Shown here: piece after piece, positions 187-61,298 of the stretch | Layout of the letters: every line of letters begins with the position of its first letter | Position numbering within the stretch: the stretch's first letter is position 1 | Origin: Candidatus Aenigmatarchaeota archaeon | Lineage (GTDB): Archaea; Aenigmatarchaeota; Aenigmatarchaeia; CG10238-14; SpSt-28 | Direction of reading: 5' to 3' | DNA: 64,000 nucleotides | Assembly (NCBI GenBank): GCA_018920305.1 | Contig: JAHLMO010000002.1 | Location: forward strand, 7,580-71,579 | Program-made: the position numbers and the translations under genes | The notes under the pieces: generated by a model | Databases searched by the model: none | What the model was told of the DNA's origin: nothing | Seen by the model: the letters and a program-made list of their open reading frames with translations, nothing else

Positions 187-1275
187 TTATCCTAGTAGGC
201 ATGTATTCCAACCACATTCTAAACAATTTAAACAATTTTCTCTAAAAACAATTAAATTACTTCCACAATTTGGGCATCTAAAAATTTTGTTTTCAATTTT
301 TTTCGAAAAATCTTTTTCTTCTAATGATTTTACTTCTACACTAAACGATTTTAGCATTTCTAATGTTTTTTCATTGTAAAAAATTTTTTTGATTGAATGT
401 TTAAATTTATATACAGGTAATTTTGAACATTCTCTAAATATTGTTATCCCTTTTAATCCTAGTTTATAAGCAAAATAAAATGCGTTTAAAATGTCTTTCC
501 AAGAAGTTTCAAAAGGCATATTTATAGTTTTACTTATTCCATTATCAACCCAAAAACTAAATTCGTATTGAGCCCTTAAATGATCTTGCCAAGAAATTTC
601 GTAAACAGTAACAAAATATTCTTTCATATCATTCGGAATTTCCTCAATATTTTGAATGCTTCCACTTTCTGAAATTTTTTTAATTACTTCTTCTTTATAT
701 AATCCTCTTTCTTTTAATTGAATTTCTAATTCATAATCGTACAAAGCTTTCATTTTCATGAATTTTTTGTTTACCATTTTTATCAAAAATTTTTCATCGT
801 ATAATATATCAAGTATTACTATTAACGCAACAACTCTTTCAAATAATTGTTTTGGTGTTTCAATTATTTTGCCATTTTCATCTCTTAATAAATATCTTGA
901 TGCAACAACTCTTAAAGCATTAATAGAGAATCTTCTATCGATTTCATCTAAAAATTCTTTATTTAATATTTTTTTCTTTTCTTCTCTTATTTTTTCTCTT
1001 TCTTTTCTATATAAAATAAAAGCTTTAGCAGTTTCATATAGATTATTTTCTATTAAAACTTGTTCTATAATGTCTTGAATTTCTTCTACATGCGGATATT
1101 TATCTTTAAATTTTTGAGATATTTTGTTCAATACTTGATTAAGTAAATTTTTTAATAAATTTTCTTCAAATTTATTACTTGCAATCAAAGCTTTTTTGAT
1201 TGCATTTTCAATTTTTTCTATTTTAAAATCTTGCAGATAATTTTCTCTTTTTATAACTTTTGAGGGTAAGTTCAT
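187..1275 (-). CDS. Ribonucleotide reductase-like protein (class II RNR remnant?). N-terminal ATP-cone and the RNR N-helical segment (RYLLRDENGK..ETP) are fused to the RNR C-terminal segment (VDNGISKTINMP..GLKGITIFR) and a CxxC..CxxC zinc ribbon. The catalytic barrel is absent.
   Basis: ATP-cone motif VIKRENYLQDFKIEKIENAIKKA; conserved RNR N- and C-terminal motifs. Length is 362 aa versus ~700+ aa for a full RNR large subunit. Confidence 0.5.
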   Translation of the reverse strand: MNLPSKVIKRENYLQDFKIEKIENAIKKALIASNKFEENLLKNLLNQVLNKISQKFKDKYPHVEEIQDIIEQVLIENNLYETAKAFILYRKEREKIREEKKKILNKEFLDEIDRRFSINALRVVASRYLLRDENGKIIETPKQLFERVVALIVILDILYDEKFLIKMVNKKFMKMKALYDYELEIQLKERGLYKEEVIKKISESGSIQNIEEIPNDMKEYFVTVYEISWQDHLRAQYEFSFWVDNGISKTINMPFETSWKDILNAFYFAYKLGLKGITIFRECSKLPVYKFKHSIKKIFYNEKTLEMLKSFSVEVKSLEEKDFSKKIENKIFRCPNCGSNLIVFRENCLNCLECGWNTCLLG

Positions 1276-1299: not shown

Positions 1300-1575
1300 A
1301 TGAATTCTATAATTGCTGTAAAAATGAAATTATATGGAAAAGTTCAAAAAGTAGGATTTAGATTCTTTTTATCTAAGCATGCAGAAAGATTAGGAATAAA
1401 AGGTTATGCAAAAAATTTAGAAGATGGTTCTTTAGAATGTCATTTTGAAGGTAATGAAGAAAAAGTTAGAGAAATAATAGAACTTGCAAAAAAAGGACCA
1501 CCACTTGCAAAAGTTAAGAAATATGAAATTTATAAAACTGATATAAAAAATTTTGAATCGTTTGAAATCTATTAA
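1300..1575 (+). CDS. acyP: Acylphosphatase
   Basis: YGKVQKVGFRFF motif; ~90 aa; typical acylphosphatase fold signature. Confidence 0.8.
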   Translation: MNSIIAVKMKLYGKVQKVGFRFFLSKHAERLGIKGYAKNLEDGSLECHFEGNEEKVREIIELAKKGPPLAKVKKYEIYKTDIKNFESFEIY

Positions 1576-1583
1576 AAATTTAA

Positions 1584-3059
1584 ATGTTTACAATAAAAGA
1601 AAGAGATTTAGCGGGAAGAATTGGAACTTTAAAATTAAAAAATGGAGAAAAAATAGACACACCATATTTGTTTCCTGTAGTAAATTTTTTTCATTCAGAA
1701 ATTTCTTTAGATGATATAAAAAAAGTTGGATTCGATGCAATATTAGTTAATGCATACATCTTATTGAAGCACAATTTTGATAAAGAAATTCACGAATATA
1801 CAAAATTTAAAAAAGTAATGAGTGATAGTGGAGCTTATCAGCTACTTCAATATGGAGATATAGATGTCAGTAATGAAGAAATAATAGAATATCAAAAAAA
1901 GATAAATACAGATATTAGCGTTATATTAGATTATCCAACAGGTAAATTAGATTACGAAAATGCAAAATTTACTGTTGAAGAAACGATAAAAAGAGCTAAA
2001 GAGGCAAAAAATTTAATAGATGATAAAAGATTGTGGGTTTATCCGATTCAAGGAGGGAGTTTTGAAGATCTTTTGGAAAAAAGTATTATCGAGGGAATAA
2101 AATTGGATTATGATATTTATGCAATTGGAAGTCCAACAGTATTAATGACTGAATATAAATATGAAGAATTGTTTAAAATAATTTTAAAAGTAAAATCATT
2201 ATTACCATTTAATAAGCCTGTTCATTTATTTGGTGCTGGTCATGCACATTTAATTCCATTTGCAATAGCTATGGGAATTGATTTATTTGATAGTGCTAGT
2301 TATATTCTATTTGCAAGAGATTTAAGATATATGAGTTTTAATAGAACTTATGATTTTAATGAGTTAAAATATTTGCCATGTAATTGCGAAGTTTGTAGAA
2401 AATATTCTGTAGAAGAATTAAGAGAAATTAATAAAAATGAGTTAATAAGATTGTTAGCAATTCATAATTTATACGTTATTAAAAAAGAGTTGGAAAATAC
2501 AAAACAAGCAATAATAGAAGGAAGATTATGGGAATATTTAAGAGAAAAATCTTTTTCTCATCCAGCACTCTATAAAGCTTTTAAGCAATTCAAAGATTTT
2601 AAAGATTTTCTAAAAAATTTAACGCCTTTTTACAAAGTATCTCAAAAAGCAATATTTTTGTATGATAGCTTCGATTTAAACAATCCAAAAGTTTTGATTG
2701 CAAGAGAAAAGCTAAAAGAAATGAATAAAGATGTTGATGAAAAAATTCTTTTGTTTCCATATCTGCTTTGGAAAAATAATGAAAAAACTTTAGAAAAGTT
2801 TACTAAAAAATATAGCGATTTCAAAGTTTATTTCTATTCTCCATATTTTGGAATTTTTAAGTTTGGTTTAAGATATACATATCCATTTTTCCAGAGCGAA
2901 ATTAACGATGATTTTGATAGAGAAGTGTTTGAAGATTTAAGTAACGAAATTAATTCATTCTTAGAAAACAAAAAGATAAAGCAAGCAGTAATAATAATAC
3001 CAAAGGGTTATATTTTAAAAATTAAGAGCAGAAAGAACTTATTAAAAGTTTACATTTAA
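1584..3059 (+). CDS. tgtA: Archaeosine tRNA-guanine transglycosylase (ArcTGT), short form probably lacking the PUA domain
   Basis: TGT catalytic domain with Zn site CNCEVCRKYS..H; 491 aa versus ~580 aa for full-length ArcTGT. Confidence 0.8.
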   Translation: MFTIKERDLAGRIGTLKLKNGEKIDTPYLFPVVNFFHSEISLDDIKKVGFDAILVNAYILLKHNFDKEIHEYTKFKKVMSDSGAYQLLQYGDIDVSNEEIIEYQKKINTDISVILDYPTGKLDYENAKFTVEETIKRAKEAKNLIDDKRLWVYPIQGGSFEDLLEKSIIEGIKLDYDIYAIGSPTVLMTEYKYEELFKIILKVKSLLPFNKPVHLFGAGHAHLIPFAIAMGIDLFDSASYILFARDLRYMSFNRTYDFNELKYLPCNCEVCRKYSVEELREINKNELIRLLAIHNLYVIKKELENTKQAIIEGRLWEYLREKSFSHPALYKAFKQFKDFKDFLKNLTPFYKVSQKAIFLYDSFDLNNPKVLIAREKLKEMNKDVDEKILLFPYLLWKNNEKTLEKFTKKYSDFKVYFYSPYFGIFKFGLRYTYPFFQSEINDDFDREVFEDLSNEINSFLENKKIKQAVIIIPKGYILKIKSRKNLLKVYI

Positions 3060-3065
3060 AGTTTT

Positions 3066-3956
3066 TTGTCATTCAGAGGTAATATTTTTATGGATAGTAA
3101 TTGGAAAATTGAATATGGTAAATTACTGTTTAAACTTTTTGATTCGGTTTATTATATTTTATCTCACGAAGGAGGATATAATGCTATAGTTGTTGGTGGA
3201 ACTGCTTTTAATACTTATGTAGATAAAAAATATAGAAGATTTAATAAAGATGTTGATATTTATATTGAAGTAGATGAGAAAGAACAGATTAACAATTATA
3301 AAAGAAATGTAATAAAACTTATAAAAGAAAATCTAAAAACTTCACCACTTTTATTTAGATTAGAGGATGATAATATCTTAATTTATTCAAAACTCAAAAA
3401 ATTAAATAAAGAGTATATTTACCCATATTTGTCAATTAAATTGGGAACAAAAAGAATTAACTATATAACATTATCAAAATTCGATACATTCTTAGAAAAA
3501 ATTGGATATAAATTTGATTTTGCTTGTACAGATAAAATAAAAGTTATAAATAAAGAAGATTTATTTATTTCAGAGTTAAGAGAGATTATTAAGCCCTACA
3601 AAACTTCAGAAATACTAAAATATCTTTATGATACTTATATTCTTGAGAAGTCTTACTCATTTTTGCTAAAAATTCCTATTTATAGAGTTTATTCATCAAA
3701 TGATGTAGGAATTATTAAGTTTATTCAAAAAGTTCTTAAATTAGTTTTAATTAAACAATCTAAAAAATTTGAAAAAGAATTTTTATTAGGAGATAACTAT
3801 CCAAGAAGAGAAGTTGAAAATTTTCTTGAAAAACTAATATATAATTTGATGTTATCATATGGATATGAAAATACGAAAATTAACAAAAGACTTATAGAAT
3901 ATCTTACATGTTTTTCTAGTTATTATTTTTCGAACTTAAATTTATGCAACATTTAA
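3066..3956 (+). CDS. Pol-beta-superfamily nucleotidyltransferase-like protein. The N-terminal motif resembles class I CCA-adding enzyme.
   Basis: VVGGTAFNTYVDKK..DVDIYIEV matches the hG[GS]..NT..x(n)DhDh nucleotidyltransferase signature (archaeal CCA enzymes have GSYARNTWL..DIDVFV); 296 aa. Confidence 0.3.
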   Translation: MSFRGNIFMDSNWKIEYGKLLFKLFDSVYYILSHEGGYNAIVVGGTAFNTYVDKKYRRFNKDVDIYIEVDEKEQINNYKRNVIKLIKENLKTSPLLFRLEDDNILIYSKLKKLNKEYIYPYLSIKLGTKRINYITLSKFDTFLEKIGYKFDFACTDKIKVINKEDLFISELREIIKPYKTSEILKYLYDTYILEKSYSFLLKIPIYRVYSSNDVGIIKFIQKVLKLVLIKQSKKFEKEFLLGDNYPRREVENFLEKLIYNLMLSYGYENTKINKRLIEYLTCFSSYYFSNLNLCNI

Positions 3957-4011
3957 AAATTCATTAAAAAATAATAGTAAAATTTTTATACTTTAATGTT
4001 TTTTATCATTT

Positions 4012-4971
4012 ATGAGTAGATCAAACGAAATCTTTATAGGAGAGTTAGAAAGAGCATATATCTTTCATACCTCCTACAACAGCCTAGAAGAAAGGAGAGT
4101 ATGGATAGTAAGAAATAAAAATAGAAACGTTGATAATATAAAGGATAAACTACCTTTTAGAATAGAAAGAACTTTTAATGATTTCTCAGAAGTAGTAGCA
4201 AGTATTAGTAAAGGCGATAATATAGAAAGAATAATTTTTTCTTTAGCCGATGTTCCCCAAAAAGATATAGTAAAGGTTTTTGGAAATTTTGAAGTAATAT
4301 TCCCTAACTATGAAAAAATGATGAAAAAAATAAACAAACCAGTTATAGCTATTACTACCTCTACTAAAGGAGCAGGTAAATCTGCAGTAACTCTTACTTA
4401 TGCGACTTACTTTAAAAATAAGAATATTCCATTAATAGTTGCAACTTATCCAGAATTTAATGGAAAATTTGATTCTTCTATTACTCATTCAGTAATAAAA
4501 ACCGAAGAAGATATAAAAAATAGTCCATTTGTTATAGAATCTTCAGAATTTAAACCATATCTATCATTAAACATACCAGTATATGTAGGAATTGATTACA
4601 CTACATTAAACAATACAAAAACTGAAATAGTAATATGGGGAATATGTAAAGGTTCTACAGAGCCGCCTCTAATAAAGCCAGATGTATATATTACTGTCGT
4701 TGATTTAGGAAGAGAAGCTTGGGACTATATAAGTTATCCAGGAATATATAATCTCAGAAATTCACATATAATTTTCTTAAATAAAGCAAATATATTTAAG
4801 AATAGTCTAAAAGAACAGCTAATAATGCAAGAATTAAAAGAAATAAATCCAAATGCAGAAATAATAAAGGTTAGACAAGTAGAAATTGGTGATGATACTT
4901 CAATCGTAGTCCCAGAAGATGAAAAAATAAATATATATGAAATCTTAGGATGCTATATAAAAGGGATATAG
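4012..4971 (+). CDS. Hypothetical protein with P-loop-like segment (IAITTSTKGAGKSAVTL; BioD/CobQ-like?)
   Basis: ORF in track; weak Walker-A-like motif; overlaps next gene by 22 nt (operon). Confidence 0.25.
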   Translation: MSRSNEIFIGELERAYIFHTSYNSLEERRVWIVRNKNRNVDNIKDKLPFRIERTFNDFSEVVASISKGDNIERIIFSLADVPQKDIVKVFGNFEVIFPNYEKMMKKINKPVIAITTSTKGAGKSAVTLTYATYFKNKNIPLIVATYPEFNGKFDSSITHSVIKTEEDIKNSPFVIESSEFKPYLSLNIPVYVGIDYTTLNNTKTEIVIWGICKGSTEPPLIKPDVYITVVDLGREAWDYISYPGIYNLRNSHIIFLNKANIFKNSLKEQLIMQELKEINPNAEIIKVRQVEIGDDTSIVVPEDEKINIYEILGCYIKGI

Positions 4972-6083
4972 AAAGGCTTTATAAGAATTTTTTATCTTCA
5001 ACCACCACCTATAATTTATTTTTAGAAGTTCATAAAGATAGCATTCTCTCAAAAAGAGATGTTAAAAATCTTCTCTTTAGATATTTTCCTTCTATTCTAA
5101 AATTTCAAAACCTATTATGGATTGTTTACAACTACAAAAGTTATAAAAAACTTCTAAAGGAAAGTTGTATACCTTCACGAATTCTTTCTATATTTTTAAA
5201 GTTTCTTGAAGAAAACAATCTCATAAAACTCTCAAAAGAAGGTAAAAATTTAACAAGTGATATTCAAGTTAATTTTTCTTTACCTCTTCCATCAATTTCT
5301 GTAATCAACTGGAGAAACATTCTTCGTAATTTTTCTGAAATTAGAGATAAATTTTTTAGAAATTTCAAACTGAAACATGCATATGAACAACATTATTGTA
5401 CTAATGTTTCTTCTATAAAGAGAATAAAAATAATCTATTCAAATTCATATCTTTTTGACACTACTATAGGAATATTGGGAGATGATGATTTACTATCCAT
5501 TAGTTTTTATCTTTTAATTTCTCAACTTGAAAGTGAAGTTCTACAAAAGCAAGAAACAACTGAAAAAATTTCAAAAATAGTAAACAAGATATATGTTTTT
5601 GATATAGACGAAGAACTAATATATTTGATAGAAAAAGTTATTAGTAATCATGAAAGTTTCAAACTAGAAGTTTTTGACCTATGCTCAAGAATTCCAAAAA
5701 GATTTAAAAACAAATTGGAAATATTTTCATTTGATGCTGACTTTTTATGTTTTTTTGACGCAGCAATAAAAATGATTAAAAAAATTGCTGGAATTAGAGG
5801 TTATATCTCATTAAATCCTATCATCTATTCAGAAAATTATTATAAATATATGCGAAAACTCTTCGAAAACGGTTTTGTAATACATAAGTACTATAAAGGG
5901 TTTAACTTATACCCAATATTACATCCTATACCTCAGATAATAAAAAAAGGAAATAAATTTGTTATCAAACATCGCCAAGATCCAAGACAAATAATTAATG
6001 AAGATGAGTTACGTTATCTAAGAGAGTTATTAAAAAGTAGCTATGCTTTTTCGTCTGATCTTATGATAGTAGAACTTTTGTAA
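4950..6083 (+). CDS. Hypothetical protein with GDDD motif (ILGDDDLLSI), DUF43/BpsA-like?
   Basis: ORF in track; GDDD motif reminiscent of the DUF43 (branched polyamine synthase) family; weak. Confidence 0.3.
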   Translation: MLYKRDIERLYKNFLSSTTTYNLFLEVHKDSILSKRDVKNLLFRYFPSILKFQNLLWIVYNYKSYKKLLKESCIPSRILSIFLKFLEENNLIKLSKEGKNLTSDIQVNFSLPLPSISVINWRNILRNFSEIRDKFFRNFKLKHAYEQHYCTNVSSIKRIKIIYSNSYLFDTTIGILGDDDLLSISFYLLISQLESEVLQKQETTEKISKIVNKIYVFDIDEELIYLIEKVISNHESFKLEVFDLCSRIPKRFKNKLEIFSFDADFLCFFDAAIKMIKKIAGIRGYISLNPIIYSENYYKYMRKLFENGFVIHKYYKGFNLYPILHPIPQIIKKGNKFVIKHRQDPRQIINEDELRYLRELLKSSYAFSSDLMIVELL

Positions 6084-6160
6084 GACAAAAACATGAAAAT
6101 GTAACTTCCTTTATCTTTAAATTTTAATTTTTGTTTTAAAAATAACTTAAAGAAGTAATA

Positions 6161-6742
6161 ATGATAAATATTATGGCATCATACATTATAATTCTTAGAC
6201 ATCCAATTTGGGATAAAAGAAAAGACAAACCATTAAAAGAAACATACGAGCAAATTTTTAGAATATTTTCATTGTTAAGAAAGCATTTTAAAAACATAGA
6301 TATAATTTTTTCTTCTCCAACTAAAAGATGCTTATTCTTAGCCAAAGCAATTTCTATCAAATTCAATACAAAAATAATAAAAACCAGTTTGCTAAAAGAA
6401 AGAAACGAAGGTATTTATAAGTTTTTTGGAGAAAAGGCAGAAAAGTTTTTAGAATTTAAGAGTAAAAACTCGCATTATTGCGAATATAAACCTTTTCTAG
6501 GAGAAAGCGTAATTTCTGTTTTCAAAAGAACAAAAAAGTTTATAGAAAAATATTTAAAAAATTTGAAATATAAAAATGTAGTAATTGTAACTCATTATAC
6601 TAACATTTTAAGCTTTTATTCAATTTTTACTAAAAAAGATATTAAATATGTTTGGGATTATGAAGATTTTTTAGAAAAAGGATCAATAGGATTTTTAATA
6701 GAAAATCTTGATTTTAGGAAAATAAAGTTTGTTCGTGCTTAA
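6161..6742 (+). CDS. Histidine phosphatase superfamily (phosphoglycerate-mutase-like) protein
   Basis: N-terminal ILRHPxW (RHG-like) motif and VTHYTNI (second His) motif. Confidence 0.5.
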   Translation: MINIMASYIIILRHPIWDKRKDKPLKETYEQIFRIFSLLRKHFKNIDIIFSSPTKRCLFLAKAISIKFNTKIIKTSLLKERNEGIYKFFGEKAEKFLEFKSKNSHYCEYKPFLGESVISVFKRTKKFIEKYLKNLKYKNVVIVTHYTNILSFYSIFTKKDIKYVWDYEDFLEKGSIGFLIENLDFRKIKFVRA

Positions 6743-20631: not shown

Positions 20632-20872
20632 AGAATTTTATAAGAAGTTGGTCAAAGACTTAATTTAGAAAGATTTTAATGGATTTAGCAATTTATTCTA
20701 CTATCTTAGACATTCTCATATTTTTAGGAACTCTACTATCAGTCATATTTAAAATAATCTTTTTATGGTTTTATGTTAAGATAAGCAATGTGTGTTCGAA
20801 TTTAGAATTTAGAATTTTTTATAAGAAAAAATTTTGAGATAAAATCTTTCAAATTTTCTATAGTTATGTGAT

Positions 20873-20946
20873 TGGGCGGGGGGAGATTTGAACTCCCGAC
20901 CTCCCGGTTATCAGCCGGGCGCTCCACCAGGCTAAGCTACCCGCCC
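20873..20946 (-). tRNA. tRNA-Ile (anticodon GAU)
   Basis: GGGCGGGTAGCTTAGCCTGGTGGAGCGCCCGGCTGATAACCGGGAGGTCGGGAGTTCAAATCTCCCCCCGCCCA folds as a cloverleaf. Confidence 0.85.
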
Positions 20947-20959
20947 ATATATAAATAAT

Positions 20960-30310: not shown

Positions 30311-30949
30311 TTGATAAATACTCATATCTCTCAAAATAAAGTTTTTGTCCGCTATTTGTTAGATATAACAAATAGATGTATATTTAACTGTATTTATTGT
30401 TATAAGAAGAGTAGGAATTCTGATATTTTAGAGAATAATACAGCATATCTTAAGACAGAAGAGGTGATATATGTTGCAAGAGAGTTGTCAAAAATTGGTT
30501 TTAAGATTGTAGCAATTTCTGGAGGTGAACCTAGTTTACATCCAAATTTATGTAAAATAGTTAAAGAAATTAGAGATAAGACAAAAACTAAAAGTATGTA
30601 TAAGTTTGAGTGGAAACAGAGATATTCGCAATTATTTGAGGAAAAAAATTCATACCAAGTAACTATGACTACTATCAAAAAACTAAAAAAATATAGAGTA
30701 CCTTTTTCTATACATTCAACTATAACTCCAATTAATTATTCTTGTGTTTACGATTTAACAAAATTTTCTAAAAAAGTAGGAGCAATTAGTATAAAGTTAT
30801 CTCATGTCATTTCTTTTGGGCGTGGAAAAAACAAAAATCTTTTTTTATCTAAAACTCAGCTTGATAAATTATTTAAGCTTCAATTCTCAGCAAAAAAAAG
30901 TTTGATATACCAGTTTTTACTAATTTGTGTGATAACTTGCTTTAGATAA
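30311..30949 (+). CDS. Radical SAM domain protein (short, 212 aa; possibly truncated)
   Basis: CxxxCxxC (NRCIFNCIYC) near the N-terminus; GGEP motif. Confidence 0.45.
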   Translation: MINTHISQNKVFVRYLLDITNRCIFNCIYCYKKSRNSDILENNTAYLKTEEVIYVARELSKIGFKIVAISGGEPSLHPNLCKIVKEIRDKTKTKSMYKFEWKQRYSQLFEEKNSYQVTMTTIKKLKKYRVPFSIHSTITPINYSCVYDLTKFSKKVGAISIKLSHVISFGRGKNKNLFLSKTQLDKLFKLQFSAKKSLIYQFLLICVITCFR

Positions 30950-33138: not shown

Positions 33139-33151
33139 AAATAAAATTAAA

Positions 33152-33223
33152 TGGACCGGCGGGGATTCGAACCCCGGGCCTCCCGCTTGCAAGGCGGGCG
33201 CTCTTCCACTGAGCTACCGGCCC
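33152..33223 (-). tRNA. tRNA-Ala (anticodon UGC)
   Basis: GGGCCGGTAGCTCAGTGGAAGAGCGCCCGCCTTGCAAGCGGGAGGCCCGGGGTTCGAATCCCCGCCGGTCCA with the G3:U70 Ala identity pair. Confidence 0.9.
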
Positions 33224-33304
33224 ATATAAATTATAAAATTGTAATTTTATCTAGTTTAATTTTTTAATATTTTATTTAATTTTTAACTTTGTCGTATATT
33301 AATT

Positions 33305-39645: not shown

Positions 39646-40296
39646 TTAAATCGAATCAAAATATTTTAGTATCAAATTTTCAATATTCTTCTCATTTAGT
39701 CCTTTACTCATTAAGAAAAACTTTTGATCATAATCTAATCTAATTATTTTAGAAGAATGAAAAGCTTTTGAACTATCATTTTCAACGTTTATTATAGGAA
39801 TAGAAACTAATATCGAATTGTCTTTTAAATAAAAAACTTTGTGTAGGTTAGCTATAGAATTTATTGATTCTTCTTTTATTTCTATATTACCTATTGAAAC
39901 TAATTTTTTAGTAACGAAAAGTTTCATATTAGAATTAATATAACTATTTGAATTTGGAGTTAACTTAAGATAAATATATCCTTCTTTTGCTTTTCCATAA
40001 AGAAAATAATTTATATTTCCTATCGAAAATATTTCATCAATTAAAATAAATGAATTTGATTTGGTTTTTATATAAATATTCGAATCTGAAGCAAAAATTT
40101 TTCTAATAACTATACTATTTCTTATGTTAGAATAAAAATTACAATTTTCTATCTTCAATTTTTCTTCGTATAGAGCGTTTTTAGTGTATAGATAAGTTTT
40201 ATCACTATTAATTTTTAATTCTCTACTTATTTTTTCTCTATACTTAATTTTATTTACATCTAAATACTTTCCAAATTTATTAACCAAAGCCTCCAT
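39646..40296 (-). CDS. sufD: SufD-like Fe-S assembly protein (truncated, 216 aa)
   Basis: C-terminal FFLMSKGLNEKNIENLILKYF parallels SufB FFLTSKGINENKAKELIFFGF; downstream of sufB with overlap. Confidence 0.45.
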   Translation of the reverse strand: MEALVNKFGKYLDVNKIKYREKISRELKINSDKTYLYTKNALYEEKLKIENCNFYSNIRNSIVIRKIFASDSNIYIKTKSNSFILIDEIFSIGNINYFLYGKAKEGYIYLKLTPNSNSYINSNMKLFVTKKLVSIGNIEIKEESINSIANLHKVFYLKDNSILVSIPIINVENDSSKAFHSSKIIRLDYDQKFFLMSKGLNEKNIENLILKYFDSI

Positions 40297-47618: not shown

Positions 47619-47775
47619 GTCTCATTAAATCCTAATTTAATTGTTAAAAAGCATAGAAAATAAGAGATATGTTGTATATAAGAGATATTTATTATGCAAT
47701 AAAAGTTGAATTAAAAAAAGTTTAACTATTCAAAGATAAAGCATATTTCATAGATGTGTTTTGAAGAAATTAGTA

Positions 47776-47850
47776 TGCCCCGGGCGGGATTTGAACCCGC
47801 GACCTACGGCTTAGAAGGCCGCCGCTCTATCCTTGCTGAGCTACCGGGGC
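47776..47850 (-). tRNA. tRNA-Arg (anticodon UCU)
   Basis: GCCCCGGTAGCTCAGCAAGGATAGAGCGGCGGCCTTCTAAGCCGTAGGTCGCGGGTTCAAATCCCGCCCGGGGCA. Confidence 0.85.
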
Positions 47851-47965
47851 ATACTAATATTATTATTTTAATATTTAATTCTTAAAAGAGAAATAAAAGT
47901 TCAAAACAAGAACATAAATAATGAGATAAAAAATTGTGAGGAAAAGTTTTTCAAACAAAATTGTT

Positions 47966-57624: not shown

Positions 57625-58341
57625 CTAAACAACTCTTATAATTTTATAATTATATTTCCAGCAACCACTCTCATCATGATCACCACAATTGAGAGTTTCA
57701 GTAATATCAGTATTTCCCCAGTTACGAGAACCTAAACTAAGGCTTACAGAAGGTCTATTTTTATCTTCGTGTATAGCTCCATTTTTACAATATTTGTTTT
57801 GAGAAAAAAGATTTGAATATTCCTTATATCTAACTCTATCATCTTCAACATAATATTCTATTAACCTATCTCTGTTACATATTCCAGTACAATAATCTTC
57901 GTATCTATCTTCTCTACAAGCTCCACCACTACAATATCTATCTATAGCTGTTCCCTTTACATATGGATTATCTCCATCACTATCTGTAGACTCTCCACAA
58001 TATGTTGTAATATAATTTGCTGAACACCAACAAGTTGCACCATCGCTTTTGCATGATCTCTCTATATAACATCTATATTTATCCGCTCTTTGACCACAAC
58101 CACAAGTATATTCATCATTACATCGATAAAATATCGTTTCACACTCTAAACATTTTTTTTGCTCTGAATCATATTTTTTACACTGTCTTACATAATATCC
58201 ACCAGCAGTACAATAACAACCCGAACAATCATCTGATGAAGAGGAAGAAAACGAGTAAAGAAATGATATAGATAAAAAAATAGCACTAAAAAAGAAAAAT
58301 AATATCAATATTCTCTTATTCTCAAAAAGGACACCCTTCAT
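57625..58341 (-). CDS. Secreted/anchored cysteine-rich protein (238 aa; ~30 Cys)
   Basis: N-terminal signal/TM, then a Cys-dense, Lys-poor domain; overlaps the upstream large Cys-rich gene by 4 nt. Confidence 0.5.
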   Translation of the reverse strand: MKGVLFENKRILILFFFFSAIFLSISFLYSFSSSSSDDCSGCYCTAGGYYVRQCKKYDSEQKKCLECETIFYRCNDEYTCGCGQRADKYRCYIERSCKSDGATCWCSANYITTYCGESTDSDGDNPYVKGTAIDRYCSGGACREDRYEDYCTGICNRDRLIEYYVEDDRVRYKEYSNLFSQNKYCKNGAIHEDKNRPSVSLSLGSRNWGNTDITETLNCGDHDESGCWKYNYKIIRVV

Positions 58342-61298
58342 ATTAATTTAAATAATTTTAAACTTTTTATTAAGTTTTGAACTACCAGATTATGTATGAC
58401 TTCAAATATCGAACTTTTTTTACTTATTACTATTCCATTCATAAAATAAAATTCGTGATTAAACCAAATTTCAACTCTTACACCTTTATCTCTTGGATCA
58501 TACATTTTACAAATTATTCTATTTACTCCACTAAAATATCTTGGATTTTCTACAGAACAACTATTTATTGTTTCTCTTTCAGTATTTTGCGTACATGGGA
58601 AAGAATTTCCGCACTTACATTTTTGTCCGCTTTCTAAAATACAATTTCCGAATAATATATCATTTATAGTACAAGCATTTTTTCCATCTATAGTAGGATT
58701 AAGATAACATTCCATATTTAATTCTCTTTGTTCTCTTGCATACTCTGCTTCCCATATTACACTAAATCTTTTCTCAGTAGAAGGTAAAAACTGGAAACCA
58801 TCCCTTATATTTTTGGAAACTAAAAATGGTAAGTCAACTAAAATACCTGTATCGTTTTTTGAACAAACCGCTAACCTTCTTAAATCATTTGATCTTATAT
58901 TTTCCCATGCAATTACTATTCTATTACCATAATCCTTTATATACTGCGGATTTATTTTTGTGTTTGCTTCTAGATCTACAAAATCTTTAAAGTTATATAT
59001 CTTTACATTTCTTGGATTATTAGCTGGTCCAACCCATAAACAATCCGTAAATTCATCAGTTTTTCCAATGATATCTCTTATTTGTGTACATTTATTTCTA
59101 TATCCGAAACAATCTATTTCTTTATGATAATTTCCACCCAAACTATTTGTCTTACTTTTTACTTCGCTACTGGAATCCCAATAAGTTTTAAGAAAAACTA
59201 TCTTATCTGTTCCTCTTTGGTTTTGTTGATCTCCTCTTGCACCCAAAAATATATAAACTTGATAATTTGAATTAGAAGCAGAATTACCAGCTTGATCAGC
59301 TATATATGCGTATAACCTTCCCCATCCAATATCTAATCTTCCGAAGCTTGCTGTATGAGTTGCTGGTATCGGATATAATGCACCACCAGGACAGGAGGAA
59401 ACCGGAAAATTAGTCGATTTTGTTGATTCTGGAGATTTATCAAATCTTAGCGAGGAGAATCTTACACCGCTTATTTCTTGTCCATTATACTCATCTCTAC
59501 TTTTTGAAGTAAAGGTTATACTTTCCTTATCTATAACAACTTTATCTGGAGTAAGAGGAATTCTTCTTCCATCTTTATCTATGTAATAATTTGGAAACGG
59601 ATCATAAGTATAATCACCACTTGATATCAATTCAGGTCTATGTTGAATATCAACAAAGTATGGATTTCTCTTATCTATACAATAGTATCCGCTAGATATG
59701 ACACCACTCATCTTATCTGTATTATCACAAACAAAGATATCTTCAATTCTATATATACAAACTTCTCCAGGACTACACCTTAAATGAATATTTATTGATT
59801 CTGACGGACATCTAGAAGAAAATGTACCTAGCGCAATAGAACAATCAAGACCTTCTCCACAATTAACTGTTAATGTACTTTCTAGTTTGCTAGTTCCAAA
59901 AATAGCACTAAATGAATAACTTCCAGATCGTGTTGGAACGTTATAACTTCCACTACAACTTCCAACTAAGTTTGATCCCATAGATACAGGTATTCTACAT
60001 AATTCTGAACCATCTGGTCTTACAATTATTATATTCTTATTTTGGCAATTTCCAGAAGCAGAGTATCTTACCATCGCGTTTATATTTATTGTCTTTCCAC
60101 AATCAGTAGTACTTGAAGGCGAAATAGAAAAAGACTCTAAGCAAAGATAACAACCATCAGACCAACAACATACACCTCGACAAATAACTGTCAAGTTTGC
60201 TGATATTTTATTCTCTTCATAAACGGCATTAAAGGTATAGTTTCCAGACTGAGTTGGAACGTTATAACTTCCACTACAACTTCCGGCTTGATTCTCGCCT
60301 ATAGAGATTGGTATTTTACATAATTCTGAACCATCTGGTCTTAAAACTGTTATATTCTGATCTTGACAATCTCCAGATGCCGAATATTTTACTTCGGCTT
60401 TTATATCTATTGTATTTCCGCATCTATCAGTACTACTTGGATTTAAAGATAATGATTTCAAATCTACTTTACAACATTTAGCCTCTAATTCTGTAGTTAC
60501 TTCTAGGTTTTGGAGAACAGCCTTAAAAGTATACTCTCCAGCTTGATCAGGAACTTTATATTTTATATTACGTTTTCCTACTAAATTGTTTCCTACATTT
60601 GTTATTGGAATTTCACATACTTTATTAGAAAAATGATCCAAAACAGTTATGTTTTGATTGAGATAAGCTTCTGTAGCAGTATACTCTACGCTTATCTCTA
60701 TATCTATTTCTTCACCACATTTATCTGTGCTACTTGGATTAAGAGATATTGATTTTAACCCTGGACACTGTACTTTTATATTAAAATATTTTACTTGTCT
60801 ACTTTCTGGATATCTTAGTTGTCCATAAATGGCTCTAAAAGTATATTCTCCAGGGTAAGATGGAATATAATAGTCTTCAACACAACCTATTGTATGTTCT
60901 CTACCAGGTTCAACATCCTGAATATGCAGATTACAGAATACAGAACCATCTGGTCTAAACACTGTTATTATTTCTCCACGACAAACTTCAGAATTAGCTG
61001 TAAAATTAACTACTGCTCTTAAAGTATCGCTTCCTCCGCACTGGGAGAAAAACCTAGGAACTAGATAAAAATGATTAATATGTATAACACAACAAGGCTC
61101 TCTAGACCATCCAGATTCACAACAATAATAAGTTACGCCACCAAAAGTAGCGGAATCTCCTATTTTATAATCACATCCTTCTTTACAACAACTTTTCCAT
61201 ATGTCGCTTTTATCGCTAAAAGAAATATAGAAAAAATGTAGAGTTAAAAAAGAAATAAACACTAAAAAAATTGTAATTCTATGAATAATACTTACCAT
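58338..61298 (-). CDS. Large secreted cysteine-rich surface protein (986 aa) with 4 tandem ~95-aa Ig/CARDB-like repeats and a ~500-aa C-terminal domain of unknown function
   Basis: Signal/TM N-terminus. Repeats S.NPSSTD.CG..I.I...V.Y.ASG.C...NI.V.RPDGSELC.IP.S.G.N..GSCSGSYNVPT.SG.Y.F.A appear 3 times, plus a diverged first copy. Confidence 0.5.
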   Translation of the reverse strand: MVSIIHRITIFLVFISFLTLHFFYISFSDKSDIWKSCCKEGCDYKIGDSATFGGVTYYCCESGWSREPCCVIHINHFYLVPRFFSQCGGSDTLRAVVNFTANSEVCRGEIITVFRPDGSVFCNLHIQDVEPGREHTIGCVEDYYIPSYPGEYTFRAIYGQLRYPESRQVKYFNIKVQCPGLKSISLNPSSTDKCGEEIDIEISVEYTATEAYLNQNITVLDHFSNKVCEIPITNVGNNLVGKRNIKYKVPDQAGEYTFKAVLQNLEVTTELEAKCCKVDLKSLSLNPSSTDRCGNTIDIKAEVKYSASGDCQDQNITVLRPDGSELCKIPISIGENQAGSCSGSYNVPTQSGNYTFNAVYEENKISANLTVICRGVCCWSDGCYLCLESFSISPSSTTDCGKTININAMVRYSASGNCQNKNIIIVRPDGSELCRIPVSMGSNLVGSCSGSYNVPTRSGSYSFSAIFGTSKLESTLTVNCGEGLDCSIALGTFSSRCPSESINIHLRCSPGEVCIYRIEDIFVCDNTDKMSGVISSGYYCIDKRNPYFVDIQHRPELISSGDYTYDPFPNYYIDKDGRRIPLTPDKVVIDKESITFTSKSRDEYNGQEISGVRFSSLRFDKSPESTKSTNFPVSSCPGGALYPIPATHTASFGRLDIGWGRLYAYIADQAGNSASNSNYQVYIFLGARGDQQNQRGTDKIVFLKTYWDSSSEVKSKTNSLGGNYHKEIDCFGYRNKCTQIRDIIGKTDEFTDCLWVGPANNPRNVKIYNFKDFVDLEANTKINPQYIKDYGNRIVIAWENIRSNDLRRLAVCSKNDTGILVDLPFLVSKNIRDGFQFLPSTEKRFSVIWEAEYAREQRELNMECYLNPTIDGKNACTINDILFGNCILESGQKCKCGNSFPCTQNTERETINSCSVENPRYFSGVNRIICKMYDPRDKGVRVEIWFNHEFYFMNGIVISKKSSIFEVIHNLVVQNLIKSLKLFKLI

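Follow-up and report, generated by a model that had tools for sequence, protein, structure and literature searches.

The window (the whole stretch of DNA analysed here, 64,000 nucleotides with a GC content of 24.7%) carries near one end an uninterrupted open reading frame (ORF) of 362 codons, the product of which is identical to MBU5682290.1, deposited as 'hypothetical protein KQA34_01050' from a 77-kb contig of a Candidatus Aenigmarchaeota metagenome-assembled genome (MAG). Two genes for an acylphosphatase and an archaeosine tRNA-guanine transglycosylase (TGT) follow in the opposite orientation, and the coordinates of these genes, of three tRNA genes and of the parts of the ORF discussed below are collected in the table. 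The genes of the window are those of a housekeeping region, encoding ArgRS, AspRS, SMC/ScpAB, Rad50/Mre11, MCM, TBP, aRF1, SufBCD/SufS and ribosomal proteins. The context was scanned by Pfam for 61 further ORFs, by NCBIfam for five, and by tblastn with fragments of class II and class III ribonucleotide reductases (RNRs) and of an ATP-cone-bearing R2 protein (PF00268) as queries; these searches (Pfam, NCBIfam and tblastn) returned no second RNR, no NrdG and no recognisable deoxynucleoside (salvage) kinase within the 64-kb window. A radical-SAM ORF at 30311-30949 was considered as a candidate for NrdG, the activase of class III RNR, and was rejected, its best matches being of the NirJ/MoaA type with no NrdG model among them. 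This 212-aa protein matches only the first ~200 positions of NirJ/MoaA-type models of 300-350 positions, and the match of the 216-aa SufD-like ORF at 39646-40296 to the SufBD core is confined to positions 131-230; each may be a naturally short gene or a further case of truncation. Elsewhere in the window, a 986-aa ORF (58338-61298) with faint similarity to Filamin/MG2 repeats, followed by a 238-aa ORF without an assigned family, may encode a large surface protein such as those by which DPANN archaea contact their hosts.

Table. Features of the window at and around the 362-codon ORF (aa, residues of the 362-aa product; L081, L082 and L083, contigs with a frameshifted allele; N, non-synonymous; S, synonymous)
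Feature	Position	Strand	Evidence or remark
Probable nrdJ remnant, class II (adenosylcobalamin-dependent) RNR	187..1275	-	Pfam, NCBIfam, database identity
ATP-cone, aa 6-94, native frame	994..1260	-	Pfam PF03477, E=3e-21; 100% nucleotide identity to L081/L083
RNR N-terminal all-alpha segment, aa 115-161, native frame	793..933	-	PF00317; aligns with intact orthologue through codon 161
Frameshift, one G lost in codon 162	790..794	-	intact GAAAAGATTTTT, window GAAAAATTTTT; common to L081, L082, L083
Out-of-frame stretch, 12 codons, aa 163-174, FLIKMVNKKFMK	754..789	-	ancestral codons 163-175 IFDKNGKQKIHEN; three-frame translation, tblastn
Junction 1, 83-nt deletion at 6-nt microhomology AATGAA	749..754	-	
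Surviving island, codons 203-208 (MKALYD, aa 175-180), native frame, one T>C	736..753	-	
Junction 2, 1362-nt (454-codon) deletion at 3-nt microhomology GAT	736..738	-	removes original codons 209-662
Six window-specific transitions, within 165 nt 3' of junction	574..739	-	3N:3S; non-synonymous I197V, A224V, P228S
RNR barrel C-terminal end, aa 181-285 (original 663-767), native frame	421..735	-	PF02867; T. maritima NrdJ alignment
Cys-rich zinc-finger tail, C334-C359	199..276	-	sequence; identical in intact orthologues
Acylphosphatase	1300-1575	+	synteny anchor; divergent from RNR, 24 nt off RNR start
Archaeosine TGT	1584-3059	+	synteny anchor, after acylphosphatase
tRNA Ile-GAT	20872-20947	-	
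tRNA Ala-TGC	33151-33224	-	
tRNA Arg-TCT	47775-47851	-	

The initial annotation had read the ORF as an open frame that unites an ATP-cone, the N-terminal helical segment and the C-terminal region of an RNR with a zinc module of the class II type, and all of these elements were recovered. Besides the N-terminal ATP-cone, Pfam places Ribonuc_red_lgN (PF00317) at residues 115-173 (E=2.7e-8) and Ribonuc_red_lgC (PF02867) at residues 178-279 (E=1e-19), the latter match spanning only profile positions 421-522/523, and six cysteines (C334, C337, C348, C351, C354 and C359) lie at the C-terminus, where most class II RNRs have a Cys-rich zinc finger as their terminal domain (Loderer et al. 2017, PMC5704485). 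The NCBIfam class II RNR models give two disjoint partial matches, far under their curated cut-offs (112 bits against 400 for TIGR02504 and 200 against 1125 for PRK06406), and the structure of Thermotoga maritima NrdJ aligns at chain residues 11-58 and 543-632 only. Kinship with the family is evident from the orthologous position and from a nucleotide identity of 97-100% to intact or frameshifted nrdJ alleles, and both accessory elements, the ATP-cone and the Cys-rich zinc finger, are present. The ten-stranded alpha/beta barrel with the finger loop that carries the thiyl-radical cysteine is lost except for its C-terminal end, the NPCGE motif (codons 453-457 of the orthologue) being deleted, and so is the active-site redox cysteine pair, which corresponds to C271 and C466 of the intact orthologue and lies inside the deleted segment. 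The ORF is nrdJ by descent but lacks every catalytic attribute of the family.

Intact class II RNR genes of 2535 nt, encoding 844 aa, occupy positions 4018-6552 of two contigs from Aenigmatarchaeota MAGs, L003 (JAWBAK010000002.1; protein MEM5820654.1) and L004 (JAVYPJ010000002.1; MEM0243376.1). Both came from a scan of species-representative genomes, in which their best segments matched residues 180-362 at 98% and 92%, respectively; the full-length relative that the initial annotation had suggested looking for is therefore found at the locus. At the nucleotide level, L003 is 97% and L004 about 90-92% identical to the window gene, the identity to L003 being 96.6% over gene nucleotides 1-527 and 97.6% over nucleotides 538-1089. 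The intact NrdJ of L003 has the same start and a near-identical ATP-cone and zinc-finger tail, and its gene begins 24 nt from a divergent and identical 91-aa acylphosphatase, followed by the archaeosine TGT, as in the window. The same neighbour genes flank the enzyme of a more distant relative (L001, protein P0002, 80% amino acid identity), whereas L004 lacks the acylphosphatase and TGT neighbours and has a glutamate dehydrogenase gene (2532..3773) upstream of the RNR instead. At 90% identity, the clusters to which the two intact proteins belong comprise at least eight full-length sequences of 844 aa, all from independent MAGs, whereas the deleted form is present once. The intact orthologue aligns with chain residues 121-633 of T. 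maritima NrdJ (E=6e-122), placing its C271, N453/C455/E457 and C466 opposite C134, N320/C322/E324 and C333; of these, C134 and C333 are the redox pair and C322, the cysteine of NPCGE, is the thiyl-radical cysteine. An intact orthologue at the locus and disabling lesions in the window copy, as expected of a pseudogene, are thus both present.

The neighbourhood itself is variable. Although the TGT is 491 aa long in both the window and L003 (1584-3059 versus L003:2234-3709), this region is 92.6% identical with 11 gaps, and the C-terminal third contains a strongly diverged patch (FKQFKDFKDFLKNLTPFYKVS in the window versus FRIFENYKKYFTEHSNFFKIF in L003), which, beside an identical acylphosphatase, hints at local recombination. 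Between the TGT and a histidine-phosphatase gene, the window has three ORFs (3066-6083) for a DUF6036 nucleotidyltransferase, a 319-aa protein of no family and a 377-aa BpsA_C-like protein; the TGT and phosphatase are adjacent in L001, and the alignment with L003 ends at the TGT. The segment is a strain-variable insertion of ~3 kb beside the decaying RNR.

The deletion boundaries, the mapping of which had also been suggested at the outset, were located by alignment to T. maritima NrdJ and the intact orthologue. Compared with the 844-aa protein, codons 163-202 and 209-662 are absent from the 362-aa product, and residues 163-174 are read out of frame; in nucleotides, positions 1-527 of the window gene pair with L003 1-528, one nucleotide being missing from the window gene, and positions 538-1089 pair with L003 1984-2535, the total difference in length being exactly 1446 nt (482 codons). 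The first lesion is the loss of one G within GAT GAA AAG ATT TTT (codon 162). Past it, the ancestral frame still encodes KIFDKNGKQKIHENESF, and the called ORF encodes FLIKMVNKKFMK. A k-mer search then revealed a 19-nt match, AATGAAAGCTTTGTA[C/T]GAT, to intact codons 202-208, lying 83 nt downstream of the first breakpoint. The 1-nt and 83-nt lesions together amount to 84 nt, so that the native frame is restored at MKALYD. A simpler scheme, in which a single 1445-nt deletion and the 1-nt frameshift were accompanied by 10 nt of untemplated filler, was discarded after the same search, the "filler" being the remnant of codons 203-208. The second junction eliminates nearly all of the barrel, including the equivalents of Cys271, Asn453/Cys455/Glu457 and Cys466. 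Since the three losses sum to 1446 nt (1 + 83 + 1362), or 482 codons, the first ORF runs in frame into the last 182 codons; the frameshift alone would have led to a stop at residue 189, and the deletions alone to one at residue 182.

The earlier description of this gene can now be refined. The absence of the catalytic cysteines is borne out, the equivalents of T. maritima C134, C322 and C333 all lying in deleted codons 209-662. The barrel is indeed missing apart from its last ~100 positions, which stay, but its loss had been put at ~400 residues, against a net loss of 482. Likewise, the N- and C-terminal segments are joined, as was stated, but not by a direct jump: the out-of-frame residues 163-174 and the surviving island at 175-180 stand between them. 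Having lost nine tenths of the barrel together with the radical cysteine and the two redox cysteines, the predicted product cannot reduce nucleotides.

An intermediate state of the gene is preserved in contigs of three further, independent MAGs, L081 (JAWAVZ010000182.1), L082 (JAWBCR010000149.1) and L083 (JAWBHA010000093.1), which share the identical 1-nt deletion in codon 162 and have a complete barrel. In L081 and L083 the 2534-nt gene is called as two overlapping ORFs of 188 aa (ATP-cone and lgN) and 682 aa; the L082 contig starts inside the gene, so that the upstream ORF is cut to 129 aa, and the body ORF is called at 642 aa. These contigs encode the three members of the cluster of intact proteins that begin at or after residue 163 and contain HENE and FRECSKL, which are otherwise specific to the window. 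Nucleotides 1-527 of the window gene are 100% identical to L081 and L083 and 99.7% identical to L082, the upstream flank is 99.8% identical to the frameshifted alleles, the 186 nt past the stop are identical, and the barrel end is 98.6% identical to L081; the linked substitutions K114R, L124V, A149V, P155L, Y175N and G765C are common to the window and the frameshifted alleles. The whole barrel is still encoded by these alleles, whereas another 1445 nt are missing from that of the window. The shared 1-nt deletion and the near-identity set the order of events as intact gene, frameshift and deletion, and the deletion appears to have arisen within essentially one strain. Of the two fates that the initial annotation had offered, a decaying RNR is the one that agrees with intact 844-aa orthologues, a frameshifted intermediate in three MAGs and a singleton 362-aa form.

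The frameshifted genes lie at L081:170-2703, L082:1-2357 and L083:565-2957, and their body ORF stays open over 2 kb of AT-rich DNA. In this allele, a -1 slip of tRNA-Lys on GAA-AAA-T would recreate the native DEKIFD, as would one extra A introduced through transcriptional slippage on A5T5. L081 and L083 also carry a G629S replacement in the conserved IAPTG loop.

It may be asked whether the deletion was produced by assembly, by binning consensus or by amplification (a chimera) over a full-length frameshifted allele. The deleted form is known from one assembly only, the three contigs with the full-length frameshifted gene are all short (~3 kb), hinting at a tangled assembly graph, and the six substitutions by the junction could reflect a mixed-strain consensus. 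However, the junctions share 6 and 3 nt, whereas collapse by an assembler needs k-mers of at least 21 nt, and the enclosed 13-nt island is a signature of microhomology-mediated repair or template switching, not of repeat collapse. Moreover, the 77-kb contig is collinear with its relatives on both sides of the gene, and a minority chimeric molecule would not reach the consensus. An artefact of any of these kinds is accordingly improbable, and mis-assembly in particular is an unlikely source of the deletion.

Of at least 13 assemblies, one alone has the deleted form, which makes up a one-member cluster in a collection of 15 billion proteins, and neither the matches from a search of 5.8 billion proteins nor the genome collection included a second genome with the same architecture; the derived architecture, as is usual for a pseudogene, is conserved nowhere else. 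A 32-mer spanning the junction and a control 35-mer from the same gene were both without a match in JGI metagenome contigs, from which the species is absent, and a search of the literature on RNR in Aenigmarchaeota found nothing relevant. The same searches bear on the idea that the ORF represents a naturally short family, or an intein-containing or split gene with the barrel encoded elsewhere; the short family and the intein are scenarios that the initial annotation itself had named as fatal to its reading. Split and intein-containing class II RNRs are known, PRK08332 of NCBIfam models intein-containing enzymes of the Pyrococcus type, and much of what the N-terminal part matches in the databases consists of short 'partial' proteins. 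These short hits, however, stem either from contig ends or from frameshifts, the breakpoints in the DNA can be mapped to one contiguous gene of the ancestor, close relatives have the intact 844-aa orthologues, and other Aenigmatarchaeota loci encode full-length enzymes. Among the latter is L017, which had been considered as a contiguous match to residues 114-285 and proved to be a normal 696-aa RNR; the only 362-aa match was the window's own protein, and a natural short family was rejected. Pfam detects no Hint, intein or LAGLIDADG domain in the 362-aa protein, and no barrel-encoding sequence was found elsewhere in the 64-kb window by tblastn or by the Pfam scans of the 61 further ORFs. An organisation of this kind is hardly conceivable.

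An unrelated, GC-rich archaeal class II RNR (protein P0003; L002:6935-8675, JGI 3300066320, Ga0599197_37469) is also internally deleted. It lacks the equivalents of intact residues 410-678, including NPCGE, the join lying at a VWRRV / IIKKI-like repeat, and its ATP-cone is on a separate overlapping ORF, indicating a frameshift. It is a second compound RNR remnant resembling an open ORF.

Substitutions in the gene were compared along the lineages. The stem of the frameshifted clade has 7 non-synonymous and 14 synonymous changes, the interior of the clade 7 and 8, and the L003 branch 5 and 16, with 65 and 159 as the baseline between L003 and L004. Gene-wide contrasts for relaxed purifying selection, drawn from few changes, were non-significant (p=0.16-0.38; p=0.16 for 7N:8S against 65N:159S), the changes being too few for dN/dS because the lesions are very recent. 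On the clade stem, the replacements are concentrated around the frameshift, codons 114-175 containing five of the seven (5N:2S, compared with 2N:12S in the other codons; p=0.017). A first comparison, of 7N:8S in the window lineage with 0N:9S in the L003 lineage (p=0.022), had been taken as decay after the deletion and was abandoned, most of these changes being shared with the frameshifted full-length allele. Of the replacements specific to the window, A224V and P228S strike positions that are invariant in 13 of 13 relatives. The six window-specific transitions make up all the differences from the frameshifted sisters, the remaining ~920 nt of the gene and ~750 nt of flanking sequence being free of them, and three of the six states are also present in other alleles (L004, P0126/P0129); as read from the alignments, the cluster is compatible with decay, mutagenic repair synthesis, a small recombination patch or a mixed-strain consensus.

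The persistence of an open frame through these lesions is one reason to consider that the fused protein of ATP-cone, C-terminal segment and zinc finger is a selected nucleotide-sensing module, kept when catalysis had been lost and acting either in the manner of NrdR, as a regulator, or as a dominant partner to a second RNR. The alternative frames of the gene contain 41-44 stops per 362 codons (about one per 8 codons), so that a fusion out of frame would have ended immediately, and three lesions nevertheless gave a net in-frame outcome. The chance of this is ~1/3 for a single event behind both deletions and ~1/9 for independent ones, and mild selection may have helped to keep the frame open. 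In addition, the lesions have spared the ATP-cone and zinc finger, both of which are identical to their counterparts in functional relatives, and the promoter-proximal layout with its 24-nt divergent spacer is retained. The out-of-frame stretch, on the other hand, was already stop-free in the frameshifted allele, the first ORF of which reaches residue 188, and open remnants are preferentially called and noticed, closed ones being missed; given also the chances of 1/3 to 1/9, we do not read the open frame as a sign of function. The architecture is a singleton across protein and genome searches; outside the deletion the gene is 99.8-100% identical to the frameshifted allele, which leaves no time for selection; the twelve linker residues are a by-product of the frameshift; the barrel fragment is torn from its fold; new substitutions have hit invariant positions; and the NrdR family is absent from the 25 NCBIfam and 10 Pfam hits to the 362-aa protein at E≤1. 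A selected module is thus very improbable, and the retained allosteric or regulatory module that the initial annotation had put forward as the second fate is not supported, the form being conserved nowhere, twelve residues being frameshifted filler and the lesion lengths accounting for the open frame. It would be more speculative still to suppose that the deletion was favoured after the frameshift, the small protein having become an ATP/dATP-sensing regulator or decoy, NrdR-like and made de novo from an RNR. We regard this as a long shot; if true, an NrdR-like regulator would have been caught at birth in a natural DPANN population.

It is therefore very probable that the 362-aa ORF is a very young, strain-specific pseudogene remnant of nrdJ in one Aenigmatarchaeota (DPANN) species. 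In the proposed course of events, an ancestral intact gene of 2535 nt would have encoded the 844-aa enzyme with its ATP-cone, N-terminal helical domain, barrel and zinc finger. In one haplotype, a single G would have been lost in codon 162, dividing the gene into the 188-aa ATP-cone ORF and the 682-aa body ORF. In the genome of the window, the frameshifted allele would then have lost 83 nt and 1362 nt at short microhomologies, most simply in one complex microhomology-mediated or template-switch event that left the 13-nt island. Direct observation covers the existence of the three alleles, the position of the breakpoints, the absence of the catalytic residues and the occurrence of the deleted form as a singleton; beyond this, we infer that the deletion is biological rather than produced by assembly, that a single event caused it, and that its product is functionless. 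A compound pseudogene is a known kind of thing, not a new protein type or new biology. As a broken copy of a well-known enzyme, the protein itself matters little. The modest value of the locus lies in the population snapshot that it offers: in a DPANN archaeon with a reduced genome, a normally essential gene is lost in steps, and its intact, frameshifted and deleted alleles can all be seen in near-identical genomes recovered from related hot-spring samples. If the gene was the sole RNR of the strain, dependence on the host for deoxynucleotides would be arising in real time. The case also calls for caution in annotation, since a 'hypothetical protein' with an open frame and a wealth of domains may turn out to be a compound pseudogene, the lesions of which happen to sum to a multiple of three.

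The remnant is worth comparing with the systems from which its parts are known. Its zinc-finger tail has the same CxxC...CxxCxxC...C arrangement at the extreme C-terminus as the tail of class II RNRs (Loderer et al. 2017, PMC5704485), but there is no active site left to receive its electrons. The solved class II RNR, T. maritima NrdJ (PDB 1XJE/1XJK), has neither an ATP-cone nor a zinc-finger tail; conversely, the window protein lacks the equivalents of its chain residues ~60-540, including C134, C322 and C333. The bacterial RNR repressor NrdR is, like the window protein, small and composed of one ATP-cone and one Cys4-type zinc module. This likeness is superficial, for in NrdR an N-terminal zinc ribbon precedes the ATP-cone, whereas the order is reversed in the window protein, the zinc module of which is the redox tail of a class II RNR, in contrast to the DNA-binding ribbon of NrdR.
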